The notes beneath the pieces were generated by a model. It had not been told where the DNA came from. It worked only from the letters and a program-made list of their open reading frames with translations, and made no database searches. DNA of 64,000 bases, from the NCBI GenBank assembly GCA_016186425.1, contig JACPLR010000007.1:2838-66837 (forward strand), given 5' to 3'. Both the position numbers and the translations under genes were made by a program. Shown here piece after piece: positions 10,015 to 36,934 of this stretch. This DNA is from Candidatus Pacearchaeota archaeon. GTDB taxonomy: Archaea > Nanobdellota > Nanobdellia > Pacearchaeales > GW2011-AR1. Numbering within the stretch: position 1 is the first letter of the stretch; every line of letters starts with the position of its first letter.

Positions 10015-10069
10015 ATTATATTGTATAAATATTCTATTTTTAAATTTAATGATAGTCTAAAATATAAAA

Positions 10070-10214
10070 CGCCTCGGGGAGGACTCGAACCTCCGACCCC
10101 ACGGTTTCCGTTTGGTCTACCAAAGGCAGATACAACATGTAACAGCCGTGTGCTACTACCTATTGCTCCTTCTTTATGCCATTATCAGCTAAAAAAAGTC
10201 TGAGCTACCGAGGC
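10070..10214 (-). tRNA. tRNA-Asn(GUU) with two putative introns (D-loop and anticodon loop)
   Basis: Minus-strand read: acceptor GCCTCGG/CCGAGGC, T-arm GGAGG-TTCGAGT-CCTCC, anticodon stem CACGG/CCGTG. The anticodon loop CU-GUU-A is interrupted by about 34 nt. A further insert of about 36 nt lies within the D-loop (GCTCAGAC[...]GGTAGTAGCA). Discriminator G; no encoded CCA; 145 nt total. Confidence 0.75.
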
Positions 10215-10988
10215 AAATTCATCTAATCCTAAAATTAAATGATTATCTAAAATCCGATAATATCTATATAAACCTTTTGGGATGACAACAAACACTTTAT
10301 ATTTAGGCTCTAAATACGAAATTTTATCTTTCAGTTTATAAGATTTAACTTCGCCTCTCCACATCGTGCATTCAATAATAATTTTTTCGTTTATCAGAAA
10401 ATCTGGGAAAAAGTATTTATCTCCAGATTTAATCAAAGGTTCATACTGATAATCTAACCCAAGATTAAAAAAGATATCTGCAACTTTCTTCTCAAATAAG
10501 TTTCTTACTAATTCCCCTTTTTTAGTTTTATAATTATATCCTCCTATTTTCTTAAATCTATTATATTGTAATTTATAATATTCCTCGGGTTTGTTAGTTT
10601 TCATATAATGATGCCATTTTTTCAATTTCCTAGATTGTATATCCTGAAGCTTTTTCATATCCCTTTCAAAAGTTCCTTTTTCTTTCTTAGCTTTAACACA
10701 ATTTAGCCCTCCAGATTTTTGTCTAAAATTATCCTCGAGTTTATTAGTAATATATTTCTCAATATTTTTAATCCCAATAAAACCTAATAATTTACTAACT
10801 CTCTCGTCTGGAATAAACCCACCAACCAAATATCTATCAATAGAAGAACTAGGGACGTTAATCTGTAAAGCTAATTTTCTAGAAGAACCTGCTTTCTTAA
10901 CTGCTTTATTAATTAATTGTTTTTGATTATTTAATTTAAGATACATATAATAAATAATAAAACATAGTTTAAATACTTTTCCCTCCAT
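10185..10988 (-). CDS. HTH domain plus PD-(D/E)XK-like nuclease-fold protein (hypothetical)
   Basis: 267 aa (alternative start ATG at 10946). N-terminal HTH-like segment (SSRKLALQINVPSSSIDRYL). C-terminal YFFPDFLINEKIIIECTMWRGE...K resembles a D...E-x-K nuclease core. The last 10 codons and the stop lie inside tRNA-Asn exon 1 and intron 1. Confidence 0.45.
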   Translation of the reverse strand: MEGKVFKLCFIIYYMYLKLNNQKQLINKAVKKAGSSRKLALQINVPSSSIDRYLVGGFIPDERVSKLLGFIGIKNIEKYITNKLEDNFRQKSGGLNCVKAKKEKGTFERDMKKLQDIQSRKLKKWHHYMKTNKPEEYYKLQYNRFKKIGGYNYKTKKGELVRNLFEKKVADIFFNLGLDYQYEPLIKSGDKYFFPDFLINEKIIIECTMWRGEVKSYKLKDKISYLEPKYKVFVVIPKGLYRYYRILDNHLILGLDEFASVAQTFFS

Positions 10989-36780: not shown

Positions 36781-36934
36781 TGCGCCAGCCGGGAATTGAA
36801 CCCGGCTCTAAACCTTTTTCCACTGGTTGCAGGATTCTTTGAATTCATACAACGTGAATGGTTGCAGGATTCATAAAAACCCGCTGGTGGTTTTTATTTG
36901 GGAAGGTTTTATTCTGCCGATAAACTACAAGCGC
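36781..36934 (-). tRNA. tRNA-Gly(CCC) with 83-nt anticodon-loop intron
   Basis: Minus-strand read: GCGCTTG-TA-GTTT-ATCGGCA-GAAT-A-AAACC-TTCCCA[83 nt]A-GGTTT-AGAG-CCGGG-TTCAATT-CCCGG-CTGGCGC-A. The anticodon stem is a perfect 5 bp. There is one U:U mismatch in the acceptor stem (6:67). No encoded CCA. Confidence 0.7.

Follow-up and report, generated by a model that had tools for sequence, protein, structure and literature searches.

A tRNA-Asn(GUU) gene with two predicted introns, one of them in the D loop, in a Pacearchaeota-type archaeon

We describe a 145-nt locus of a Pacearchaeota-type DPANN archaeon and read it as a functional tRNA-Asn(GUU) gene, present in a single copy, that contains two introns of the bulge-helix-bulge (BHB) type; EndA would cut these out and RtcB would join the exons. 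We put the probability of this reading at about 0.87. It draws on motifs observed at the locus, on conservation and covariation among orthologues, on junctions given by intron-less alleles, and on the presence of EndA and RtcB genes. The gene lies on the minus strand of the window (the 64,000-nt stretch of DNA that was analysed), and the genome as a whole comprises 869 kb in 29 contigs, with ~30% G+C and a completeness of 88%.

Gene structure and splice sites

The 5′ half of the locus reads, on the minus strand, GCCUCGG UA GCUC AG (ACUUUUUUUAGCUGAUAAUGGCAUAAAGAAGGAGCAA) UAGGUAGUAGC A CACGG CUGUUA, with intron 1 in parentheses, and the 3′ half consists of intron 2 (CAUGUUGUAUCUGCCUUUGGUAGACCAAACGGAA) followed by exon 3, which reads A CCGUG GGGUC GGAGG UUCGAGU CCUCC CCGAGGC G and does not encode CCA (Table 1). 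As the first-pass annotation had concluded, the gene has the makings of tRNA-Asn(GUU): the acceptor stem of 7 bp is intact, as are the T stem and the anticodon stem (CACGG/CCGUG), both of 5 bp; the T loop reads UUCGAGU and the discriminator is G. Taking out both introns leaves an RNA of 74 nt that ARAGORN calls tRNA-Asn(GTT); its cloverleaf has GUU at positions 34–36 and G73, and its exons match those of orthologous tRNA-Asn genes. The T-rich tract that follows the discriminator is a likely archaeal transcription stop, judged from the sequence.

Table 1. Features of the tRNA-Asn locus in window coordinates and, in the last row, loci with a group I intron in related genomes. Arrows mark cuts.
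Feature	Coordinates	Strand	Basis
tRNA-Asn(GUU) gene, 145 nt	10070–10214	minus	
Exon 1, positions 1–15, GCCUCGG UA GCUC AG	10200–10214	minus	sequence, BHB scan; identical in orthologues
D-stem 5′ strand GCUC, within exon 1; also the 5′ strand of intron 1 helix H	10202–10205	minus	
Intron 1, 37 nt, between positions 15/16, relaxed HBh′	10163–10199	minus	fold, BHB scan, covariation, intron-less alleles
Intron 1, 5′ bulge AG↓A	10199–10201	minus	
Intron 1, helix h′, 7 bp	10192–10198 with 10169–10175	minus	
Intron 1, helix H 3′ strand GAGC	10165–10168	minus	
Intron 1, 3′ "bulge" AA↓U, outer helix h absent	10162–10164	minus	
Exon 2, positions 16–37, UAGGUAG U AGC A CACGG CUGUUA	10140–10162	minus	
Extra U in D-stem 3′ strand, GGUAG-U-AGC; all relatives GGUAGAGC	10155	minus	
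Anticodon GUU, within exon 2	10141–10143	minus	
Intron 2, 34 nt, canonical 37/38, hBH	10106–10139	minus	BHB scan; G009 allele
Intron 2, helix h = anticodon stem, 5 bp	10146–10150 with 10100–10104	minus	
Intron 2, helix H, CUGU/ACGG, one G·U pair	10142–10145 with 10108–10111	minus	
Exon 3, positions 38–73	10070–10105	minus	sequence; partial Rfam tRNA match; relatives 92–97% identical
T-rich tract TTTTATATTTT, adjoining the discriminator	10059–10069	minus	sequence
Group I intron loci in tRNA-Asn of relatives	L009 975–1537 (G011); L015 (G004); L016 (G007); L021 (G014); L011 (G018, partial)		

Splice sites were located with a custom BHB scan, which used a 4-bp helix H and cuts placed two bases into each 3-nt bulge, and ARAGORN was then run on the spliced candidates. 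ARAGORN proved permissive and accepted many wrong splices too; thus, the choice among splices rests on BHB strength and on orthologues, with the comparative evidence decisive. On the unspliced DNA, ARAGORN with default settings made no call at the locus, and Rfam missed the gene at the gathering score for tRNA and in E-value mode matched no more than its 3′ part to tRNA, at 16.6 bits. The intron search of ARAGORN (-i), suggested in the first-pass annotation, was of no help: it returned tRNA-Gly(GCC) with one 60-nt intron at 26/27, and the Asn call was obtained only after both introns had been spliced out. That the locus encodes this glycine tRNA is scarcely credible. The ARAGORN output speaks for it, but its D-arm is only 2 bp long, its anticodon stem is mismatched, and its variable region runs to 24 nt, on which grounds we rejected this fold as meaningless, and intron-less orthologues with the same exons are plain tRNA-Asn(GUU) genes, so that the comparative data already refute it.

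The junction of intron 1 reads GCUCAG↓ACUUUUUUUAGCUGAUAAUGGCAUAAAGAAGGAGCAA↓UAGGUAGUAGCA. In both the BHB scan and the fold, exonic GCUC (positions 10–13) pairs with intronic GAGC to form a 4-bp helix H. The strict hBHBh′ motif fails at this junction, with h = 0 on the 3′ side (AAU), which places the intron in the relaxed HBh′ class, a recognised class of EndA substrate (PMC3488258, PMC5829648). Bulge-helix-bulge structure at the D loop, which the first-pass annotation could not verify by eye, was found by the scan and also by folding: for the 49-nt D-loop junction, HBh′ was both the minimum-energy and the centroid fold, at −11.6 kcal/mol, with an ensemble frequency of 0.48 and z = −2.2. Splicing at 15/16 gives the D loop AGUAGGUA, which equals the AG(C/U)AGGUA of intron-less orthologues. 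The first-pass annotation was therefore right that the D loop carries an insert, but not about its size or boundary, as it had placed 36 nt after position 17 instead of 37 nt between 15 and 16; at its junction the 4-bp H cannot form, and the D loop would read AGACGGUAG, unlike that of the intron-less orthologues. Among the candidates of the BHB scan, the 15/16 solution ranked second; the top-ranked candidate would excise the anticodon and was rejected.

In the minimum-energy fold of the full pre-tRNA, a competing hairpin forms (window 10133–10167, minus strand). It joins GCAAUA-G-GUAGUAGC, which comprises the end of intron 1 and exon 2, to GCUGUUAC-A-UGUUGU, which comprises the anticodon loop and the start of intron 2, and the extra U of the D-stem adds one pair to it.

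Intron 2 accounts for the ~34 extra nt that the first-pass annotation had seen past position 37. At this site the BHB scan gave an hBH motif with a 3-nt 3′ bulge (AA↓A); an offset of 3 nt in the position of the inner hairpin, UCUGCC-UUU-GGUAGA, enlarges the 5′ bulge, and the number of contiguous h′ pairs is 0, so that the intron misses the strict motif and belongs to the hBH class. The local minimum-energy fold lacks helix H, with a z of −1.3 that is no better than that of shuffles, and intronic UGUU vies with the anticodon for ACGG. We therefore regard the BHB motif of intron 2, as modelled here, as possible rather than predicted. Its boundaries are confirmed by a congener (G009) that lacks exactly the 34 nt of intron 2, with query bases 1–75 and 109–145 abutting in the alignment.

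In the pathway that we propose, a pre-tRNA of ~145 nt would be transcribed from the locus. Within the D loop, GCUC of exon 1 and intronic GAGC would form the 4-bp H, and the AG↓A bulge would be closed by the 7-bp h′; EndA would then cut AG↓A and AA↓U, removing 37 nt from between positions 15 and 16. At the anticodon loop, CUGU (positions 32–35) would pair with intronic ACGG beside the anticodon stem, and EndA cuts at UA↓C and AA↓A would remove 34 nt at 37/38 from this hBH structure. RtcB would join the three exons into a 74-nt tRNA, to which CCA would be added later. We infer that cleavage and ligation occur and that the mature tRNA, with its extra D-stem U, is aminoacylated.

Orthologues, alleles and the extra U

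We searched the DNA of 40 related genomes and extracted their tRNA-Asn genes. Relatives have one tRNA-Asn gene each, at the matching locus and with the same upstream gene, and within the genus and order the alleles differ in intron content. Both introns are present in G005, G002, and G030, the last of which belongs to another family; the D-loop intron occurs alone in G009, the 37/38 intron occurs alone in G020 and G008, and neither is found in seven genomes (G003, G006, G013, G019, G023, G031, and G036). The intron-less genes read GCTCAG(C/T)AGGTAGAGC and CTGTTAACCGT, and have a normal 8-nt D loop; their sequences thus fix the junctions at 15/16 and 37/38.

We also ran the pattern GAGCAA↓Y AGGTAG(N)AGC....CTGTTA against 185,579 species genomes and found the 15/16 intron of tRNA-Asn at 82 loci, each in a species-representative genome. 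Nearly all of the record titles name Woesearchaeota, Pacearchaeota, or Nanoarchaeota, and two name Aenigmatarchaeota; several others read "uncultured Methanosarcinales", "uncultured archaeon", Omnitrophota, or Chthoniobacterales, and these odd titles probably reflect mis-binning or loose naming. A two-intron tRNA-Asn is thus ordinary for this lineage and routine in Woesearchaeota and Pacearchaeota. Multiple and non-canonical introns, which the first-pass annotation had associated mainly with Thermoproteales, are not confined to that group, as these 82 loci and an earlier survey (Kaneta et al., 2018; PMC5829648) show.

The 81 distinct introns from these loci range in length from 15 to 139 nt. 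A helix h′ anchored one base past the 5′ cut and ending before GAGC had a mean of 5.5 contiguous base pairs in this set, compared to 0.64 after shuffling, and other registers had 1.8 or fewer, except for one register, which is this helix without its first pair. When 59 sequences were aligned without gaps, 96.8% of all cells were paired, as were 94% of the h′ cells, compared to 39–58% for slid registers; all five of the five h′ pairs vary on both sides, and 0 of 500 shuffles matched the observed value. Helix H, which was 100% paired in this alignment, and the AA↓Y bulge were set by the search pattern, so that h′ alone constitutes independent comparative evidence.

These comparisons and the modelled junction support the view that the D-loop insert would behave as an endonuclease-spliced intron. 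One could suppose instead that only the 37/38 insert is an intron and that the D-loop insert is kept as an expanded D loop or removed by an enzyme other than EndA, an idea to which the missing outer helix h and a small alpha-type EndA without known specificity loops lend some weight. We consider it very unlikely: the inserts vary from 15 to 139 nt and yet hold a covarying cut geometry (4-bp H, 3-nt bulge, start of h′), alleles without the insert have a D loop of normal 8-nt length, and D-loop introns of the HBh′ type are spliced in Methanopyrus kandleri and Aeropyrum pernix (PMC5829648).

At eight loci in Woesearchaeota and related records (L039, L045, L051, L081, L084, L094, L098, and L104), a further insert in the T-loop/T-stem region accompanies the 15/16 intron, sometimes together with a 37/38 intron, giving up to three introns per gene; in L045 the D-loop intron reaches 139 nt. 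In G002 (locus L005), 24 nt of the tRNA 3′ end (GAGGTTCGAGTCCTCTCCGGGGCG) are repeated 39 nt downstream of tRNA-Asn, apparently as the remnant of an attachment-site duplication or through partial duplication of the gene.

The gene differs from its relatives in the 3′ strand of the D-stem, where an extra U means that the stem is not a regular 4 bp and has either a C13·U22 mismatch or a bulged U. The C:U pair that the first-pass annotation had noted at 13:22 is thus real, and one extra U is its cause. None of the 82 related genes has this base: they read GGTAGAGC where this gene reads GGTAGTAGC, and all matches are 28 nt long, none 29. Neither the locus itself nor any extra-base variant of it appeared in two metagenome scans. 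A lookup of the exact upstream protein (267 aa) led to two Logan per-run assemblies, SRR12113430 and SRR12113424, one of which may be the source data of this metagenome-assembled genome (MAG) itself; both agree with the window at all 201 bases spanning the tRNA, extra U included, indicating that the base is not an artefact of the MAG assembly. For the spliced RNA, the calculated energies were −30.0 kcal/mol for the cloverleaf with a bulged U and −28.8 kcal/mol for the cloverleaf with an open C13·U22, and the minimum-energy fold was a non-cloverleaf competitor at −30.7 kcal/mol. Removing the base in silico makes the cloverleaf the most stable fold, at −33.8 kcal/mol, so that the extra U costs ~3.8 kcal/mol.

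Could the extra U mark a loss of function in a decaying or pseudogene tRNA-Asn, with the working gene in the unassembled part of the genome? The U is unique among at least 82 orthologues, the cloverleaf loses ~3.8 kcal/mol in silico, and the genome is only 88% complete, all of which would fit; nonetheless, we judge this improbable. A search of the 869-kb assembly found no other tRNA-Asn gene, and hence no sign of the second intact copy that the first-pass annotation had raised in connection with a pseudogene, and each relative has a single tRNA-Asn at the same locus beside the same upstream gene. No damage is seen in any other stem, in either BHB motif, or in the anticodon loop, and two separate run assemblies carry the identical sequence. 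In tRNAs generally, 13:22 is the least conserved pair of the D-stem. As the gene is the only copy and is otherwise intact, we take it to be functional.

Splicing enzymes and known systems

The genome encodes RtcB (555 bits on PF01139) and a single EndA gene of 191 aa, which matches PF02778, PF01974 (105 bits), and, above the cut-off, TIGR00324. The best PDB matches of this EndA were 3iey_A (NEQ205) and 1a79 (M. jannaschii), with E-values of 3e-36 and 9e-37, respectively. Searches of the genome for an EndA beta subunit or a three-unit fusion found neither, as the beta-subunit model matched only the alpha gene plus noise. Exactly one PF01974 gene was present in 28 of 31 related genomes, including some that are 90–98% complete, and the open frames of these genes span 167–247 aa, mostly 170–225. 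The first-pass annotation had stated that introns of this kind need a broad-specificity endonuclease and had left the EndA type to be checked; profile searches and alignment identified one small alpha-type subunit, not an enzyme of the heterotetramer or three-unit type.

When 12 Pacearchaeales EndAs were aligned by sequence with NEQ205 and M. jannaschii EndA, none of the 12 had an insertion in a specificity loop (L1, L2, or L3) compared to M. jannaschii EndA, and the 6-residue insert of NEQ205 (the NEQ loop, residues 90–98, L3) was absent from all of them. The context of the catalytic Tyr, His, and Lys is conserved, as is a KG-x-(R/K)-PG-K-E-H loop, and a Lys-rich N-terminal tail is present. 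By its sequence, this EndA is thus without any feature that the literature ties to cleavage of relaxed motifs. In one congener (G012, C53:13119-13484), the match to the EndA catalytic domain falls in two pieces ~90 nt apart within one open frame, which suggests an insertion of ~30 aa in the catalytic domain.

Under the classical model, a small alpha-type EndA cuts only strict BHB motifs (PMC3488258). We tentatively propose, while holding it open to considerable doubt, that Pacearchaeota splice relaxed HBh′ introns with a single, loop-less alpha-type EndA, presumably a homotetramer, which would constitute a fourth basis of broad specificity. If this is true, HBh′ splicing at 15/16, and also at 26/27 and other sites in the genome, would proceed without CSL/L1, ASL/L2, or NEQ/L3, the three insertion loops to which broad specificity is credited at present. 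The Lys-rich N-terminal tail, the K-G-x-(R/K)-P-G-K-E-H loop, and a NEQ-like C-terminal Trp may be candidate bases for such specificity.

The arrangement itself is of a known kind, as a D-loop HBh′ intron combined with a canonical intron and the disruption of tRNA genes in DPANN archaea with an alpha4-type EndA have both been described. The pre-tRNA-Glu(UUC) of M. kandleri has an HBh′ intron in the D loop (20b/21) and a canonical intron at 37/38, and A. pernix tRNA-Thr has a D-loop intron (Kaneta et al., 2018; PMC5829648). The gene described here shares with that tRNA-Glu(UUC) its two introns, a D-loop HBh′ intron and a canonical anticodon-loop intron, and processing by EndA, which is predicted here; unlike it, the D-loop intron lies at 15/16 rather than 20b/21, in a tRNA-Asn, and in a DPANN genome. 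In M. kandleri the enzyme is an (alpha-beta)2 heterotetramer; here, only one alpha-type gene was found.

Multiple-intron tRNAs of Thermoproteales and other Crenarchaeota (Sugahara 2008, cited in PMC4033280 and PMC4090602) likewise have BHB introns at non-canonical positions, up to three per gene according to those citing papers. As described there, the EndA of these organisms is an (alpha-beta)2 enzyme with a Crenarchaea-specific loop, in contrast to the alpha-type enzyme found here, and their introns have paralogous copies that suggest transposition, whereas the genome described here contains no paralogue of either Asn intron (blastn-short, self matches only). Position 15/16 is absent from an open-ended list of intron positions that gives 20/21, 22/23, 25/26, 29/30, 30/31, 45/46, 53/54, 56/57, and 59/60 (PMC4090602).

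The closest parallel in lineage is the DPANN set of Kaneta et al. (2018; PMC5829648), in which an alpha4-type EndA accompanies many disrupted tRNA genes and which includes one Pacearchaeota and one Woesearchaeota genome; that study credits the "L3" loop (NEQ-EndA residues 90–98) for the trait. The present case resembles this set in combining an alpha-type EndA with non-canonical and multiple introns, but in the EndA encoded here and in those of 11 relatives the Tyr-to-His loop has the length of that in M. jannaschii and the 6-residue NEQ insertion is absent. Resemblance to NEQ205 (3iey_A) consists in a shared C-terminal SW(I/K)(R/K)P Trp and in the catalytic context, and, unlike in N. equitans, no NEQ261-like beta subunit was found in this genome. 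The Lys-rich N-terminal tail, ~24 aa here, has no counterpart in the M. jannaschii chain that was solved (1a79).

Introns in the genome and the genus

Other tRNA genes of the genome are disrupted in similar ways. Within a set of loci at C4:47752-47876, C4:55455-55611, and C23:15670-15787, the BHB scan and ARAGORN gave introns at 26/27 and 37/38 in tRNA-Thr(UGU), a D-loop intron and a 37/38 intron in tRNA-Gln(UUG), and a 43-nt intron in the anticodon stem of an initiator-like tRNA-Met(CAU). Many further tRNA genes have long canonical introns. With these other non-canonical or double introns and the long canonical ones, the Asn gene is typical of its genome.

A hairpin element, ATAAAGACAACC-N-GGTTTTCTTTATGA(AACTTTCC), occurs in at least seven copies in the genome (C2:18891, C11:119, C19:1263, C19:16173, C21:29049, C23:57403, and C24:3595). 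Of these, two fall within tRNA introns of the long canonical sort, those of Gly-GCC and Lys-UUU, and looser variants are found in introns of Glu-UUC, Tyr, and the Gly-CCC gene of the window (36781–36934).

Upstream, a 267-aa ORF (window 10185–10988, minus strand) ends within the tRNA gene, with its last 10 codons formed by exon 1 and the start of intron 1. It matched no Pfam family and gave only a weak HTH-like match, and its 3′ end is kept upstream of tRNA-Asn in G005, G002, G009, and G030. Because the ORF overlaps the 5′ end of the tRNA, either the tRNA promoter lies inside the ORF or the ORF and the tRNA are co-transcribed.

The tRNA-Asn(GUU) genes of five congeners (G011, G007, G014, G004, and G018) are split by a group I intron between positions 35/36 (Table 1). 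The intron measures ~490–500 nt in the four complete genes, in which RF00028 scored 72.6 (G011), 60.9 (G007), 44.5 (G014), and 43.4 bits (G004) in Rfam E-value mode; Rfam gathering mode missed these introns. G018 is represented by a partial contig and was assigned by sequence similarity alone, the Rfam match being absent. The last base is U in exon 1 and G in the intron. In G011 the intron carries an HNH-like ORF, whose Pfam HNH match has an E-value of only 0.019. In the literature searched, archaeal group I introns are placed in rRNA genes only (PMC6125680), and one case of a group I intron in a Pacearchaeota tRNA was set aside as mis-binned (bioRxiv 10.1101/2020.01.27.920355). Here, the G004 copy is on an 857-kb contig, which argues against mis-binning. 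All five group-I-bearing alleles lack a BHB intron. We speculate that group I and 37/38 BHB introns might exclude each other, because the homing site would be disrupted by a BHB intron at 37/38.

In this genus, the tRNA-Asn gene offers a small showcase of intron turnover, with alleles that have no intron, the 15/16 intron, the 37/38 intron, both, or a group I intron. Default tRNA finders overlook the gene described here, so that its genome appears to be without tRNA-Asn, and the same applies to more than 80 species of Woesearchaeota and Pacearchaeota. The 15/16 junction rule, GCUYAG↓N + hairpin + GAGCAA↓Y AGGUAGAGC, would recover such overlooked genes. The family of HBh′ introns and the lone alpha-type EndA encoded with them form a natural pair with which to test the "specific loop" model of EndA specificity.
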